DNA from: Candidatus Woesearchaeota archaeon
GTDB lineage: Archaea > Nanobdellota > Nanobdellia > Woesearchaeales > GCA-2686295
DNA: 64,000 nt
Reading direction: 5' to 3'
Assembly: GCA_937912225.1 (NCBI GenBank)
Contig: CALDOJ010000036.1
Span: 31,191-95,190 of the forward strand
Shown here: positions 30,744-52,334 of the stretch, one piece after another
Layout of the letters: each line of letters begins with the position of its first letter
Numbering within the stretch: position 1 is the first letter of the stretch
The notes under the pieces: generated by a model
Databases searched by the model: none
The model's input: only the letters and a program-made list of their open reading frames with translations
Told to the model about the DNA's origin: nothing
Position numbers and translations under genes: made by a program

Positions 30744-30803
30744 ATAAAACAAGAAATGAAAAAGATTTAAAAAACTTCCACTTATTCTCAACACTAAACA
30801 AAT

Positions 30804-30878
30804 GGACCTGTGGCGCAGTCTGGATAGCGCGATAGCCTCCTAAGCTATAGGTCGGGGGTTCAAATCCTCCCTGGTCCG
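30804..30878 (+). tRNA. tRNA-Arg (anticodon CCU)
   Basis: Hand-folded cloverleaf. Acceptor GGACCTG/CTGGTCC with one U-U at 6:67. D stem GCGC/GCGC with a GG loop. Anticodon stem ATAGC/GCTAT, loop CTCCTAA. T arm GGGGG-TTCAAAT-CCTCC. Discriminator G, no encoded CCA. GC-rich against an AT-rich background. Confidence 0.85.
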
Positions 30879-30925
30879 TCTATGTTTTCTAAAAATTTAT
30901 ATACTATTATTTTCTATCAAGTGTA

Positions 30926-45011: not shown

Positions 45012-45416
45012 TTATTGTTGTTTAAGCTTTGGTAATGGGATTGGTGCTGGTAGGCCCAGATCTTTACTTAAGATTAAAGCTTGAATATTGCATTTGTTAA
45101 GAACATTGTTCATAACTTGGTTTGTTGCTTCTTTAGGAATAGATTTGTTCTTTTTCCAAGAATCAAGAACTTCTTTAGCTGTTTTTTCATCAGATAACAA
45201 TACTAATTCGCCATTTAATTCTATATTTCCAATTCCAGGTTCATATTTTGAAGTGTATTGAAAAGTAAACTTCATTGCTTTTTGGTCACCACCAATTGCT
45301 AATTTTGCTTCTTTAACATCTTTAATAGTAACATTATTACTAATGCTAACTTTACCTGTAACAGGAAGTTTTTTTTCAATCATCATTTTTGTGAAATTTA
45401 ATCCAACTATTGCCAT
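45012..45416 (-). CDS. Hypothetical protein, possibly SecB-like fold
   Basis: The order of beta-rich N-half and C-terminal helix (VMNNVLNKCNIQALILSKDLGLPAPIPLP) loosely parallels SecB. Weak by-eye call. Confidence 0.25.
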   Translation of the reverse strand: MAIVGLNFTKMMIEKKLPVTGKVSISNNVTIKDVKEAKLAIGGDQKAMKFTFQYTSKYEPGIGNIELNGELVLLSDEKTAKEVLDSWKKNKSIPKEATNQVMNNVLNKCNIQALILSKDLGLPAPIPLPKLKQQ

Positions 45417-45502
45417 TTTTAAAATCCTCCGTGTTTGAATAACACCTTCTTCTCGTTATTAAGTTTTGGTTTATAAAAGTTTTGAATTTACAAGAATAAA
45501 AA

Positions 45503-45787
45503 GAAATATTTATATATAAAACCCGCTATCCTGAAGGTTATGATTACAAAAAGTGATTATGCGTGGCAATAGTAAACCTTTTTTCTTAGATAGTAATATA
45601 ATATTAACTGGTGATTATGCGTGGCATTTACAAATTCATAACTTATTTTAAAACTTCTAATGGCTTCTGGCGTTTGTTCTTCTAATTAAAAATTCTTAGA
45701 TTAAAAAATAAAATGAAATTTCGGAGGCAAACAAAAAATTGTAAGATTTTTGAGTCTCCTAAAATAAAATTTTCGGAGGAATATAAA
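45503..45787 (+). promoter_or_regulatory. trpB promoter plus ~250-nt leader with overlapping Trp-codon mini-ORFs
   Basis: GAAATATTTATATA (45503-45516) is identical to the trpS promoter core, and 23 nt later comes ATG 45540. The perfect 16-nt repeat GTGATTATGCGTGGCA lies at 45553-45568 and 45611-45626. Mini-ORFs are 45540-45572, 45559-45651 and 45617-45685. Confidence 0.4.
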
Positions 45788-46972
45788 ATGAATATAAAAA
45801 ATAATATACCAAATAAAAAAGGATTTTTCGGAGAGTACGGAGGTCAATTTGTACCAGAAGGATTAAAGATTGCAATGAATAATCTTACAAAAGATTATTT
45901 AAAAATAAAAAAAGACAAAACTTTCAAAAAAGAATTTGTTGAATTAATGAATAACTATGTGGGCAGACCATCAGCACTTTATTTTGCTAGAAATCTAAGC
46001 AAAAAATATGGTTGTAAGATCTACTTTAAAAGAGAAGATTTAAACCACACAGGAGCTCATAAAATTAACAACACTATAGGACAAGCTTTGCTTGCAAAAA
46101 GAATTGGCATAAAAAAAATTATTGCTGAAACTGGAGCAGGTCAACATGGAGTTGCAACAGCAACTGCAGCTGCATTGATGGGCTTAGAATGTGAAATTTT
46201 TATGGGAGAAATTGATGCAAAAAAACAGATGATGAATATTTATCGTATGCAATTGCTTGGAGCTAAAGTCAATGTTGTTAAAAAAGGTGGCAGAACCTTA
46301 AAAGATGCAGTTGATGCAGCACTTGAATACTATATGCACCATCCAGAAGTATTTTATCTTCTTGGTTCTGTTGTAGGTCCACACCCTTATCCAATGATGG
46401 TTCGTGATTTTCAATCAATTATTGGAAAAGAAGCAAAGAAACAAATAAAAAAGCAAGAAGGAAGATTACCCGACTACCTTGTTGCTTGTGTTGGTGGCGG
46501 AAGTAATGCAATTGGCTTGTTTTATGACTTTATACCTAACAAACAAGTTAAGTTAATAGGTGTAGAGCCTGCTGGTAAAGGACTAAAAACAGGTAAACAT
46601 GCAGCAACTATGACTCTTGGAAAACCAGGTGTTTTACATGGATTTTATAGTTATCTTTTACAAGATAAAGATGGTAATCCATTGCCTGTTTATTCTATAG
46701 CTTCAGGACTCGATTATCCTGGAGTTGGACCTGAACAAAGCTTTTTGAAAGATATTAAAAGAGCAGAATTTAAACATGTAACTGATGCTGAAGCTTTAGC
46801 AGCGTTTCATGAAACTTCTAGAATTGAAGGAATAATTCCTGCTTTAGAAACAAGCCATGCCCTTGCATATTCTTTCAAACTTGCAAAGAAGCTTAGAAAA
46901 GATCAAATTATTATTGTGAACTTTTCAGGTCGAGGAGACAAAGATGTAGAGTTTGTTGCAAGCCTGCATTAA
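45788..46972 (+). CDS. trpB: Tryptophan synthase beta chain (TrpB1-type), stand-alone
   Basis: [43 protein letters not shown] 45788 follows CGGAGGAAT. The called start at 45713 adds 25 non-conserved residues. Confidence 0.9.
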
Positions 46973-47003
46973 TTTTTTTTTTTTATTTTCAGAGGATAAA
47001 AAA

Positions 47004-47017
47004 GAAATATTTATATA
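47004..47017 (+). promoter_or_regulatory. trpS promoter core (TATA), probably giving a leaderless mRNA
   Basis: GAAATATTTATATA followed by exactly 23 nt and then the trpS ATG at 47041. No SD. Confidence 0.45.
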
Positions 47018-47040
47018 ACTAAAGAAGCAAACAAAATAAG

Positions 47041-48156
47041 ATGGATAAAACAATAATTACTCCTTGGGAAGTTAAAGGTAATGTTGATTATAATAAATTA
47101 ATAAGTGAATTTGGAGTTTCTAAAATTGATGAATCCTTAATGAAACAAATAGAAAAGCATGCAGGTGAAATTCATCATTTTCTTAGAAGAAATATTTTTT
47201 TTGCTCATAGAGATTTAAAGTTCTTTTTTGATGAATACGAGAAAGGTAATGCTTTTATGTACACTGGTTGTGGACCTTCAGGACCAATTCATATGGGACA
47301 TGCAACTGTTTGGATGTTTACTAAATGGCTTCAAGATAAACTAGGACTTGATCTTTGGTTTCAATTCACAGATGATGAAAAATTTCTTTTTAAAGATAAA
47401 TCAATGGATGAAATACAAAAATGGCTTTATGAAAATATGTTAGATGTTATTGCTTTAGGTTTTGATCCAAAAAAAACTCATTTTCTAATTGATACAAAAC
47501 ATGCAGGAATAATGTATCCTGAAGCAATCAAAGTTGCTAAAAAGATTACTTTTTCAACTGTAAAATCTGCATTTGGGTTTACTAACGAAAATAATCTTGG
47601 AACTATATTTTTTACTTCAATGCAAGCAGTTCCAGCATTTTTACCTAATATAATTGCGGGTAAAAAAATGGCTTGTTTAATCCCTCATGCAATAGACCAA
47701 GACCCACATTTTAGAGTTACAAGAGATGTCCTTCCAAAATTAGGACATTACAAACCAGCTTCTATTCAATCAATGTTTCTTCCGGGTTTAGGAGGTATGA
47801 AAGAAGATGGAAAACTTTCTTCTTCTACTGGTGAAGCGATTTATTTAACAGATGATAAAAAAACTGTTCGGAAAAAAATAATGAAATATGCTTTCTCTGG
47901 TGGTCAAGCAACACTTGAAGAACATAGAAAAAAAGGAGGTAACCCTGATATTGATGTTAGTTACCAATGGCTTCGATTCTTCGAAGAAGATGATAATAAA
48001 TTAAAAAAGATTTATGAAGATTATAAATCTGGAAAATTATTATCTGGAGAACTTAAACAAATTCTTGTTGATAAAATAAATGCTTTCTTAAAACAACATC
48101 AGAAGAATCGAGAAAAAGCTAAAGACAAACTCGATCAATTTATCTTTAAACAATAA
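47041..48156 (+). CDS. trpS: Tryptophanyl-tRNA synthetase, archaeal/eukaryal type
   Basis: GCGPSGPIHMGH (HIGH-type), KLSSS (KMSKS-type), overall length 371 aa. Confidence 0.9.
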   Translation: MDKTIITPWEVKGNVDYNKLISEFGVSKIDESLMKQIEKHAGEIHHFLRRNIFFAHRDLKFFFDEYEKGNAFMYTGCGPSGPIHMGHATVWMFTKWLQDKLGLDLWFQFTDDEKFLFKDKSMDEIQKWLYENMLDVIALGFDPKKTHFLIDTKHAGIMYPEAIKVAKKITFSTVKSAFGFTNENNLGTIFFTSMQAVPAFLPNIIAGKKMACLIPHAIDQDPHFRVTRDVLPKLGHYKPASIQSMFLPGLGGMKEDGKLSSSTGEAIYLTDDKKTVRKKIMKYAFSGGQATLEEHRKKGGNPDIDVSYQWLRFFEEDDNKLKKIYEDYKSGKLLSGELKQILVDKINAFLKQHQKNREKAKDKLDQFIFKQ

Positions 48157-50960: not shown

Positions 50961-52277
50961 TTATTCGAAAATTTTCTCTTTTTTATGTAGAGCAGATGGA
51001 GCTTCTCCTCCATGCCAAGTAAATCTTGGCCTGATTCTTATAGGATACATCTTCTCGTTAGTATCATCAAATATAATTGCAGAACCTTTTTCTCTAGGAA
51101 GATCATTTAATTGAGTTACTAAACCTTCACGCATATAAGACTGCATCAACATACCAAGTGCTTCAGTATCAAGCTTTGCAGTAATTCTATGAGCAATAAC
51201 AGTATCTGACTGAGTCATAACATCAGTATGAATTTTTCCTGGTTGCTGTGTTGCAAGAATTAAAGAAATTCCTGGTTGTCTTCCTTCTCTAAGAATTGTT
51301 ACAAGAGGGTCTGTTGCAGTAGTTTTTCCTTCTAATGGTAAAAATTCATGAGCTTCATCAATAACAAGCCATACAAGAGGAGATTCTTGTTTCTTAATTG
51401 CTTCATCTCCAAAGTAATTTACTGATTTATGAATGTCATGATACTCTTCTGATTTTCTAGCAACCATTCTTTCAATAAAAAGTTTTTGAGCAACTAAACC
51501 AATAACTAAATTCTTTATATTCCAAGAACCAGGCATTGTTGCATAACAAGATACATCTAAAACAGTTACTTGTCCACCTTTTGCTAAGTCACTAAGCGAA
51601 GTTCCTTCTTCATCAAAAACACCCCAATTATTTGCGTTCAAAAATTGATTTTTGGCAGCATTCTTTACTGAAGTATCAGCATCTTTGTTTTGCTTAATTG
51701 CAGAAAGTATATCTTTCATACTAAAGTCATCATTGTTTTCTTTTAAGTCGTGAATAACTGATTCAATTAATACACCAACTGGTTCGTGAGGACTAATTCC
51801 AAACGAGATGTTCCAATCTTCAGCATTTAATTCTGAAGGTTTTATTGAGAAAGGATGATCGGTTGGGATACCTTCATCTTTATATTTTTGATAGTAACCA
51901 ACAGGAGTGTATATTTGAACATCTAAACCTTTACCTTCTAGTTTCCATTCATCCAACAAATCTTTATCTTTCTTATTAGGATATTTCATAGTCCAATAAA
52001 TACCCATGGTATCAAGCATGATAACAGATATATTTTGTTTAATGTCTTTTGGCAAATTAGCCATACCTTCTGCAATAACACCCATAGTGTAAGATTTTCC
52101 GGATCCTCTCTTACCACATACAAAAATAACGTGTGAACGAACCATATCTAAAAAAACTTGATTAGAAAGAGAGGTAGTTCGACCCATCTTAACATAATGT
52201 TTTGCTAACAAAATAGTTCCTTCTGTTCCAAACTTTCTTTTGTCAGATTCACTTCGACCAACAACTATATCATACAT
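50961..52277 (-). CDS. HerA-like (DUF87-type) P-loop ATPase
   Basis: Walker A GKRGSGKSYT, Walker B WLVIDEAHEF, LILATQQP. A promoter-like AAATATTTATATT lies 22 nt upstream of the ATG. Confidence 0.75.
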   Translation of the reverse strand: MYDIVVGRSESDKRKFGTEGTILLAKHYVKMGRTTSLSNQVFLDMVRSHVIFVCGKRGSGKSYTMGVIAEGMANLPKDIKQNISVIMLDTMGIYWTMKYPNKKDKDLLDEWKLEGKGLDVQIYTPVGYYQKYKDEGIPTDHPFSIKPSELNAEDWNISFGISPHEPVGVLIESVIHDLKENNDDFSMKDILSAIKQNKDADTSVKNAAKNQFLNANNWGVFDEEGTSLSDLAKGGQVTVLDVSCYATMPGSWNIKNLVIGLVAQKLFIERMVARKSEEYHDIHKSVNYFGDEAIKKQESPLVWLVIDEAHEFLPLEGKTTATDPLVTILREGRQPGISLILATQQPGKIHTDVMTQSDTVIAHRITAKLDTEALGMLMQSYMREGLVTQLNDLPREKGSAIIFDDTNEKMYPIRIRPRFTWHGGEAPSALHKKEKIFE

Positions 52278-52334
52278 ATAGCTTATTTAGTAGAGAACTA
52301 ATATAAATATTTATTCTAATTGGATAGTAGAGTC

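Follow-up and report, generated by a model that had tools for sequence, protein, structure and literature searches.

Conserved tryptophan-codon reading frames ahead of trpB in DPANN archaea, a candidate ribosome-based tryptophan sensor

Overlapping reading frames ahead of trpB

We analyzed a 64,000-nucleotide (nt) stretch of a Candidatus Woesearchaeota contig (CALDOJ010000036.1), here called the window, which has a guanine-plus-cytosine (GC) content of 29.5% and encodes CDC48, HerA, and an archaeal-type TrpRS. Within it, the tryptophan synthase gene trpB is followed by the tryptophan--tRNA ligase gene trpS, and each gene lies behind its own promoter (Table 1). The trpB promoter is separated from trpB by a leader containing short open reading frames (ORFs), each with a single Trp codon. 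The first of these, opened by ATG 45540, had been treated as a by-product in a preliminary description of this DNA. Judged by comparison with related loci, it is instead part of a conserved, unannotated system of predicted Trp-codon leader peptides, which probably act as a ribosome-based tryptophan sensor controlling trpB from a leaderless transcript.

The trpB gene itself starts at ATG 45788, 8 nt after a GGAGG Shine-Dalgarno (SD) sequence, and public gene calls agree. ATG 45540 opens a separate 10-codon mini-ORF, as the preliminary description had recognized. Downstream of this ATG, a 16-mer that spans the junction between reading frames is duplicated, giving three chained ORFs in successive +1 frames (ORF1, ORF-La, and ORF-Lb). 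Between the leader ORFs and trpB, at 45704-45736, the trpB ribosome-binding site and start codon occur a second time in decayed form (AAATTTCGGAGG / ATAAAATGAAAT), creating an in-frame ATG at 45713. The frame open from this ATG to the trpB stop has 419 amino acids (aa), and one public annotation (P0121, JGI/IMG) gives TrpB as 419 aa, not 394.

Table 1. Features of the trpB-trpS locus (window coordinates) and predicted ORF1 peptides of related loci. BRE, transcription factor B recognition element.
Feature	Position	Strand	Description
trpB-leader promoter	45496..45516	+	ATAAAAAGAAATATTTATATA; A-rich BRE-like stretch plus TATA box TTTATATA (45509-45516)
ORF1, window	45540..45572	+	MITKSDYAWQ-stop, 10 codons, predicted leaderless; Trp codon 45564-45566; orthologues in related loci
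Junction 16-mer, copy 1	45553..45568	+	GTGATTATGCGTGGCA; ORF1 Trp codon and the GTG/ATG opening the +1 frame; exact direct repeat
ORF-La	45553..45651	+	(V)IMRGNSKPFFLDSNIILTGDYAWHLQIHNLF-stop; +1 frame of ORF1; Trp codon 45622-45624; contains ...PFFLDSNIILTGDYAWH...
T6 tract	45579..45584	+	12 nt after ORF1 TGG; Phe-Phe in ORF-La; possible archaeal U-tract termination signal
Junction 16-mer, copy 2	45611..45626	+	identical to copy 1; flanks dissimilar
ORF-Lb	45611..45685	+	(V)IMRGIYKFITYFKTSNGFWRLFF-stop; +1 frame of ORF-La; Trp codon 45668-45670; ends ...KTSNGFWRLFF-stop
Untranslated spacer	45686..45787	+	102 nt; holds trpB SD GGAGG 45775-45779
trpB	45788..46972	+	stand-alone TrpB1-type tryptophan synthase beta, 394 aa; TIGR00263, 587 bits; PF00291
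T12 tract	46973..46984	+	directly after trpB stop; likely trpB terminator, as read from sequence
trpS promoter (BRE/TATA)	46996..47017	+	ATAAAAAAGAAATATTTATATA; 20/22 identical to trpB-leader promoter
trpS	47041..48156	+	archaeal-type tryptophan--tRNA ligase, predicted leaderless, no leader ORF; NF008927, 508 bits
herA-like gene promoter	52277..52313	-	TAAATATTTATATT (52300-52313) + 22 nt + ATG 52277
ORF1, L004			MTRKSDYQWH-stop
ORF1, L176			MASKSDCRWR-stop
ORF1, L168			MPTKSDLRWLQ-stop
ORF1, L169			MQRVDLRWHI-stop
ORF1, L170			MAHTGDCFWRR-stop
ORF1, L172 unit 1			MKGDCRWL-stop
ORF1, L172 unit 2			MEKILAVKSGCRWLDQLTS-stop
ORF1, L175			MKGDLRWL-stop
ORF1, L174			MIGKSDCFWLQDCSFPR-stop
ORF1, L008			MTDGDSRWHGQPILNR-stop
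ORF1, L171			MKNLNFSKLKKGDCRWQELHFS-stop

For comparison, we fetched the DNA around related TrpB genes and translated their leaders in three frames. The nearest matches of the window TrpB are from Woesearchaeota, Nanoarchaeota, and DPANN metagenome-assembled genomes, and the resulting set comprises 13 DPANN trpB loci with pairwise TrpB identities of 64-81% and GC contents of 0.23-0.59. The closest syntenic relatives are L004 (TrpB 81% identical), of which L007 is the same contig, and L174 (70%). Further TrpB-based scans of genome and metagenome contigs returned nearly exclusively bacterial TrpB, and the only DPANN locus they added was L008.

The same arrangement recurs at all 13 loci: a TATA box, a spacing of 21-25 nt, and then an ATG opening short Trp-codon ORFs. 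At 11 loci this ATG opens ORF1 (8-22 codons), with the pattern M..K[SG]D..W..stop. ORF1 is overlapped in the +1 frame by a second ORF, ORF-L, which ends soon after its single Trp with the pattern ..FLD..S[NK]G.W.stop; examples are VIINGIRPYFFLDTSIFKISNGTWRCF-stop (L004), VIVGGVRFFLDTSIFKVSSGFWR-stop (L176), and ...RTSNGFWH-stop (L174). Two loci, L005 and L167, have no ORF1, and there the leaderless ATG opens ORF-L itself (MEKINLGKTINFKINYNLFRISNGFWQ-stop and MNSNNLFKNSTFFLDNIIFKISKGIWH-stop, respectively). The FFLD block of ORF-La is common to L004, L167, L168, L170, L174, and L176. Across 13 junctions between the overlapping frames the consensus is RGYGATTNNNNNTGGC (RGYGATTN5TGGC).

The ORF-L peptides are 22-46 aa long, and the Trp is the only invariant column of their alignment. 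It stands 1-3 codons before the stop in most leader ORFs, with an overall range of 0-8 codons between Trp and stop. Regular expressions for the two peptide motifs matched all DPANN loci then in the set; among approximately 150 bacterial trpB loci they gave three weak matches, one of which (SDTGWWA-stop) resembles bacterial trpL. An ORF-L peptide profile had no match among 5.8 billion public proteins, and pattern scans of viral contigs gave no match.

Whole-unit duplication is seen outside the window as well. In L172 (2150-2460), trpB is preceded by two complete tandem units, each made of a TATA box, a leaderless ORF1, and an ORF-L that overlaps it in the +1 frame. Both units have the same junction 12-mer, TTGCCGCTGGCT, just as both 16-mers of the window agree, though these positions vary between genomes.

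Several lines of evidence point to ORF-L being translated and under peptide-level selection. From the 13 junction TGGs, the +1 frame is open for 18-42 codons with a Trp within the last nine residues, compared with 2-9 codons in frame 0 and 1-10 codons in frame +2. In a Monte Carlo test at each locus, a +1 frame open for 10 or more codons and carrying a Trp among the last six arose with a probability of 0.006-0.064. Trp makes up 0.76% of residues in the window's proteins, and each leader ORF has exactly one, near its end. Between L004 and L176, 15 of 51 aligned nucleotides differ, and 9 of these fall on third codon positions when read in the ORF-L frame; that frame gives an amino acid identity of 13/17, compared with 8/16 for the other two, which both contain stops. 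In the S-N-G-x-W motif of seven loci, codon positions 1 and 2 are nearly invariant and third positions take three to four states, and the Ser is encoded by AGC in L170 and by TCN in the others. FFLD is kept in both the window and L004 through compensating indels (12 nt + CTTAGAT versus 13 nt + CTAGAT after the TGG). This third-position variation, together with the frame-restoring indels, shows that ORF-L is selected as a peptide.

The codons around the leader Trp are also distinctive. A C follows UGG at 24 of 27 leader Trp codons, versus 13% in the window's genes, and the next codon is often one of the rare Arg codons CGN in place of AGA.

A candidate ribosome-based tryptophan sensor

We propose that the leader peptides report tryptophan supply through the ribosome. 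The leader promoter would drive an approximately 250-nt trpB leader, translated from its 5'-terminal AUG into short overlapping peptides that each carry a single UGG a few codons before the stop; the trpS promoter would drive trpS directly, without a leader. With little charged tRNA-Trp available, ribosomes would dwell on the UGG codons; with plenty, they would finish and leave. Both the UGG-C context, in which a pyrimidine comes next to UGG, and the conserved S-[DN]-x-x stretch of the nascent peptide may make this dwelling more pronounced. An occupied leader would shield the transcript from premature termination or 5'-to-3' decay, and TrpB, converting indole and serine to Trp, would thus be made when Trp is short. 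Two routes could pass the signal on: U-tract- and FttA (aCPSF1)-dependent termination of untranslated RNA, or a stalled ribosome that blocks 5'-to-3' decay. Archaeal polarity is ascribed to FttA, and U-tracts act together with aCPSF1 (PMC12548453, PMC8716108). Since L005 and L167 have no ORF1, the last module, a leaderless ORF ending S-[NK]-G-x-W-x-stop, would be the core sensor and ORF1 an added gate. Sequence and comparison establish the promoter geometry, the ORFs with their Trp codons, and the peptide-level selection on ORF-L; where transcription starts, that ribosomes stall, in which direction trpB responds, and how the signal passes from ribosome to trpB are inferred.

A number of observations weigh against such a sensor. 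We found no conserved terminator, antiterminator, or SD-sequestering structure that would tie ribosome position to trpB in these leaders. A tract of at least five Ts follows the last leader ORF in 8 of 13 cases, and such tracts are common in AT-rich DNA; a conserved U-tract terminator at this place was rejected on that count. At the position of the window's T6 tract, a run of at least five Ts occurs in L004, L171, L172 unit 1, and L167, not in all loci. The spacer from the last leader ORF to trpB varies from 43 to 252 nt and is not conserved. Each ORF has one Trp codon, with no tandem regulatory codons as in classical attenuators. Residues other than Trp are kept (K[SG]D, FLD, S[NK]G), which classical attenuation does not need and which would suit an arrest peptide or a functional micro-protein instead. 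The +1 ORF also lacks a uniform start, with GTG or TTG at 10 of 13 junctions and no canonical start at the other 3.

Duplexes between the trpB SD and the leader weigh on the same side: in 11 of 12 loci they do not outperform shuffled sequences, and SD sequestration of the mycobacterial type was rejected accordingly. Only in L174 is the pairing significant (z = -3.95, -15 kcal/mol; L174:2392-2406 with 2483-2495). There, the SD segment can pair with the T-S-N-G codons immediately ahead of the final UGG of the leader, as would be expected if a stalled ribosome attenuated translation.

How ribosomes would reach ORF-L bears on a variant of the proposed sensor that we regard as unlikely, though it is the best of the alternatives. 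In it, a +1 shift at the "hungry" ORF1 UGG, with UGG-C read as GGC, leads into ORF-L. Only Trp-starved ribosomes might then, with the same low likelihood, cross the U-tract to the next UGG checkpoint, twice in the window at the identical 16-mers. A well-supplied ribosome could conceivably read Trp and terminate two codons later, leaving the leader naked for termination or decay; this, too, we hold only tentatively. All 13 junctions place ORF-L in the +1 frame, but being homologous they do not count as independent events. Three junctions (L171, L172 unit 1, and L175) have GCG and no ATG, GTG, or TTG in the +1 frame, and still retain ORF-L and its terminal Trp; all three belong to one TrpB clade with 75-78% identity. 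At 10 junctions, by contrast, a start codon stands exactly 11 nt before the TGG (GTG in 9, TTG in L169), and the change from GTG to TTG in L169 keeps a start codon, favoring internal initiation or reinitiation. L005 and L167 start ORF-L straight from the leaderless ATG. The nearly invariant UGG-C gives GGC in the +1 frame, and the window's duplicated 16-mer repeats the same +1 step, but the P-site codons vary (CGC/CGT/CGG, TTT, GCG, CAA) and include no conserved slippery codon. The sign of such a relay would be biologically sensible, with starvation extending translation over the T-tract. As a frameshift or pause stimulator, an SD-like GGTGAT was rejected, as the upstream RGYGAT is GGTGAT at only 3 of 13 junctions.

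The conserved non-Trp residues could also reflect a TnaC-like arrest peptide, in which S-[DN]-x-x-W-[RHQ]-stop chains inside the ribosome tunnel would detect free L-tryptophan, with a stall at termination or close to it. TnaC sets a precedent, as a leader peptide whose stalling depends on Trp (PMC8429421). Conservation at the peptide level and the position of the Trp 1-3 codons before most stops would fit. However, the Trp-to-stop distance is not fixed (0-8 codons), and no detectable sequence relationship to TnaC has been established. The target here is biosynthetic or salvage, so that a high-Trp stall would have to repress it, which needs a different downstream logic. We consider an arrest peptide doubtful. 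A likeness between FFLDN and the FNIDN of TnaC was not used as support.

Slightly less likely again, and in our view improbable, is that the short ORFs encode functional micro-proteins, such as TrpB or TrpRS partners, which share a transcript with trpB but take no part in sensing. Purifying selection on the ORF-L peptide speaks for this reading, and small proteins are common in archaea. The conservation is confined, however, to the last five to six residues and a short FLD block in peptides of 22-46 aa, and the single Trp is the sole invariant residue. The UGG-C context is kept independently of the next amino acid, and chains overlapping in three frames, together with the whole-unit duplications in the window and L172, fit a cis-acting device better than a folded protein.

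Promoters, RNA elements, and neighboring genes

The preliminary description had drawn attention to the promoters, reporting that the trpB leader and trpS share a near-identical sequence at a fixed distance from an ATG with no SD. These features were confirmed. The 14-mer GAAATATTTATATA occurs at 45503-45516 and 47004-47017, its only two exact copies in the 64 kb, and exactly 23 nt separate it from ATG 45540 and ATG 47041. The TATA box TTTATATA (47010-47017 in the trpS promoter) is immediately preceded by AAAGAAATA in both. Neither 23-nt spacer has a usable SD; GAAGGT at 45533-45538 is 1 nt from ATG 45540 and lies upstream of the predicted transcript. The herA-like gene has the same arrangement on the minus strand, as had also been reported.

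Archaeal TATA boxes are centered near -26/-27. Combined with the 22-23 nt between TATA box and ATG, this would place +1 on the A of the ATG. Both 21-mers are thus, by geometry and conservation, ordinary strong archaeal BRE/TATA promoters, with transcription predicted to start at or within a few bases of the ATG. When the 70 nt upstream of every long ORF in the window are compared, many of them, from unrelated genes, share the motif AAAnnTTTAWATA at 22-24 nt from the ATG. Allowing at most one mismatch, a TATA box lies 21-26 nt upstream of 12 of 50 gene starts versus 2.6% of all 2139 ATGs, an approximately 9-fold enrichment, and 7 of the 10 sites with a perfect TATA box and ATG open long genes. 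The trpS ATG has a TATA box 22-27 nt upstream in 6 loci. The geometry at the 12 window gene starts, together with its conservation at the trpB-leader and trpS ATGs of related loci with GC contents of 23-59%, supports the class of leaderless mRNAs suggested earlier and points to leaderless transcripts as a common arrangement in this DPANN genome. Likewise, geometry and the 13-locus conservation support the suggestion that ATG 45540 sits at the 5' end of its transcript.

Two side observations concern these promoters. At 30803-30925, no more than 10 nt separate a tRNA-Arg(CCT) gene from a perfect AAAAATTTATATA promoter downstream of it, which stands 22 nt ahead of the leaderless ATG 30926. In L004 (4237-4262) and L174 (3744-3773), trpS carries AAAGGTGATATAAC directly before its ATG; this SD-like GGTGAT would precede the predicted transcript start, such that the start differs there or the element has another role.

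From the shared 21-mer, the preliminary description had also suggested co-regulation of trpB and trpS. One form of this idea is a Trp-specific operator overlapping the BRE/TATA elements, through which one transcription factor would control both genes. The two promoters are 20/22 identical without gaps, the best of 66 promoter pairs (mean 13.0, standard deviation 2.3), and column-preserving shuffles reach at least 20 in 1.3% of trials (P about 0.01). The genes are adjacent and functionally linked, and the known archaeal trp regulators are DNA-binding proteins that act at promoters, namely TrpY of Methanothermobacter and Tar/TK0271 of Thermococcus (PMC6737238). However, the generic BRE/TATA consensus (AAAnnTTTAWATA) accounts for 11 of the 14 core positions, and the herA-like promoter already matches that of the trpB leader at 18/22. 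In L004 and L174, the leader promoters (GAAAGATTTAAATA and GAAACATTTAAATA, respectively) and the trpS promoter (ATAAATTTTATATA in both) each resemble their orthologues and are unlike one another. A shared operator beyond the generic promoter and kept in relatives was not found in the herA comparison or in L004 and L174.

No candidate regulator lies nearby. A 134-aa ORF divergent from the leader promoter (45012-45416, minus strand) is conserved next to CDC48 in L004 and L174. Pfam, NCBIfam, and PDB hold no relative, and the ORF was dropped as a candidate. The near-identity of the two promoters is specific to this genome, largely consensus, and only weakly unusual, and makes a poor case for a Trp regulon. 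The comparisons do not support co-regulation through the 21-mer, and an operator of this kind is quite improbable.

A bacterial-type hairpin switch does not appear to be present either. Rfam, including T-box, gave no match at E≤10 in 45480-45830 and only tRNA-Arg in the whole window. For four leaders (window, L170, L008, and L168), folding was not stronger than in shuffled sequences (z = +0.39, +1.38, +0.37, and -0.32, respectively), and RNAalifold on 13 leaders returned 0 conserved base pairs. Hairpin attenuator, riboswitch, and T-box were dropped on these results. With no excess structure, no conserved pairs, and no general SD pairing, the leader is not a hairpin-switch attenuator of the bacterial type. 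An RNA-level element in place of translation (a riboswitch, a T-box-like tRNA-Trp sensor, or a TRAP-like protein site) is very improbable: the junction consensus and UGG-C are kept at the nucleotide level, and the "variable" 5 nt are identical between copies within a genome (window, L172), but there is no Rfam match, excess folding energy, or conserved pairing, the third-position variation indicates coding, and the discriminator A of the tRNA-Trp in L171 would not pair with UGGC in T-box fashion.

Two local structures were also noted. L168 (397-430) and L175 (2420-2470) share a small hairpin, GAGCCCTAGGCT, right after the ORF-L stop and followed by a T8 tract, which may be a lineage-specific terminator. 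In the window, a 10-nt inverted repeat between the end of ORF1 and the start of the 134-aa gene was judged to be due to chance, given the many possible pairs in AT-rich DNA.

The gene neighborhood is partly conserved. trpB is linked to trpS, adjacent or with one gene between, in 7 of 13 loci. In one clade (L168, L172, and L175), a gene for a YggS-like pyridoxal phosphate-binding protein (PF01168, Ala_racemase_N) is inserted between the two, and trpS keeps its own TATA box, 22-24 nt, and ATG, inside or just past the 3' end of the YggS-like gene. In L171, the Trp-codon leader ORFs are separated from trpB by a tRNA-Trp(CCA) gene (2385-2460), which sits right behind a T10 tract and shows no obvious TATA box for itself; the next gene but one encodes a B3_4 domain fused to a class-I W/Y synthetase domain. 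The DPANN TrpB stands alone, with no trpA or other trp genes in the 64 kb, and its nearest non-DPANN relatives are TrpB proteins of the candidate phyla radiation and Clostridia, with 62-68% identity (loci L009-L166). This suggests that the lone DPANN TrpB is a bacterial-type enzyme for indole salvage.

Relation to known systems

Full-text literature searches found no report of leader-peptide attenuation in archaea, and the leader ORFs are missing from public protein collections. As a type of control, the leader system would be new for archaea, with a small chance, through the frameshift relay, of being categorically new. If the proposed sensor is real, ribosome-based amino acid sensing exists in the third domain and can do without the hairpin switch familiar from bacteria. 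Symbionts with reduced genomes would then regulate a lone salvage TrpB beside TrpRS and sometimes beside tRNA-Trp. The leader would offer a testable case of translation feeding back on transcription or mRNA fate in archaea, whether by FttA polarity, U-tract termination, or 5'-to-3' decay, and possibly a case of regulated frameshifting. Should the relay hold, it would be an amino acid sensor built from serial programmed frameshifts, and a ribosome-mediated attenuation in Archaea not met in our searches.

In the autoregulation of bacterial prfB, the gene for RF2, a programmed +1 frameshift at a slowly decoded A-site codon depends on a slippery CUU with an SD-like element close by. The DPANN junctions conserve neither of these, and the majority carry a GTG or TTG; a frameshift at these junctions is hypothetical. 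The likeness lies in a short ORF that ends just after a rate-reporting codon, a conserved +1 ORF, a C following the sensed codon, and, in some members here, no start codon for the +1 ORF (frameshifting is reviewed in PMC5009743).

The promoter part of the observation is already known biology. Leaderless mRNAs from BRE/TATA promoters are well documented in Haloferax and Sulfolobus, with ribosome profiling (PMC7261190). The window's promoters appear to be ordinary members of this class, sharing TTTAWATA, the A-rich BRE-like stretch, the 22-23 nt to the ATG, and the lack of an SD, and differing in nothing essential. TrpY and Tar also control archaeal Trp biosynthesis genes at or near the promoter; they bind defined operator boxes, whereas no conserved operator or regulator gene was found at the loci studied here.

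With TnaC of the E. coli tryptophanase operon, the leader shares conserved nascent-chain residues and a putative stall site near the stop. TnaC differs in sensing free Trp, in controlling a catabolic operon through Rho, and in its pattern of conserved residues (PMC8429421).

Two systems come nearer. In bacterial trpL attenuation (E. coli and Sinorhizobium; PMC1262725, 10.1101/606483), as here, a short translated ORF with Trp codons lies upstream of a Trp gene, and the sensor would in both cases be ribosome dwell time at UGG. Differences are the archaeal host, the leaderless mRNA, one UGG per ORF in place of a tandem pair, up to three +1-overlapping ORFs, the conserved non-Trp residues, and the lack of detectable terminator or antiterminator hairpins. 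In the mycobacterial leaderless polycysteine short-ORF (sORF) attenuators (the "ribulon"; Canestrari et al., 10.1101/834739), a leaderless sORF is likewise the first cistron, and the cognate amino acid is sensed through ribosome pausing, as we propose here. Those attenuators use runs of Cys codons and the unmasking of a sequestered ribosome-binding site, whereas the DPANN leaders have single Trp codons and significant SD pairing in 1 of 12 loci. Without the defining structural features of either system, the leader appears closest in logic to bacterial trpL and to the mycobacterial polycysteine sORF attenuators.

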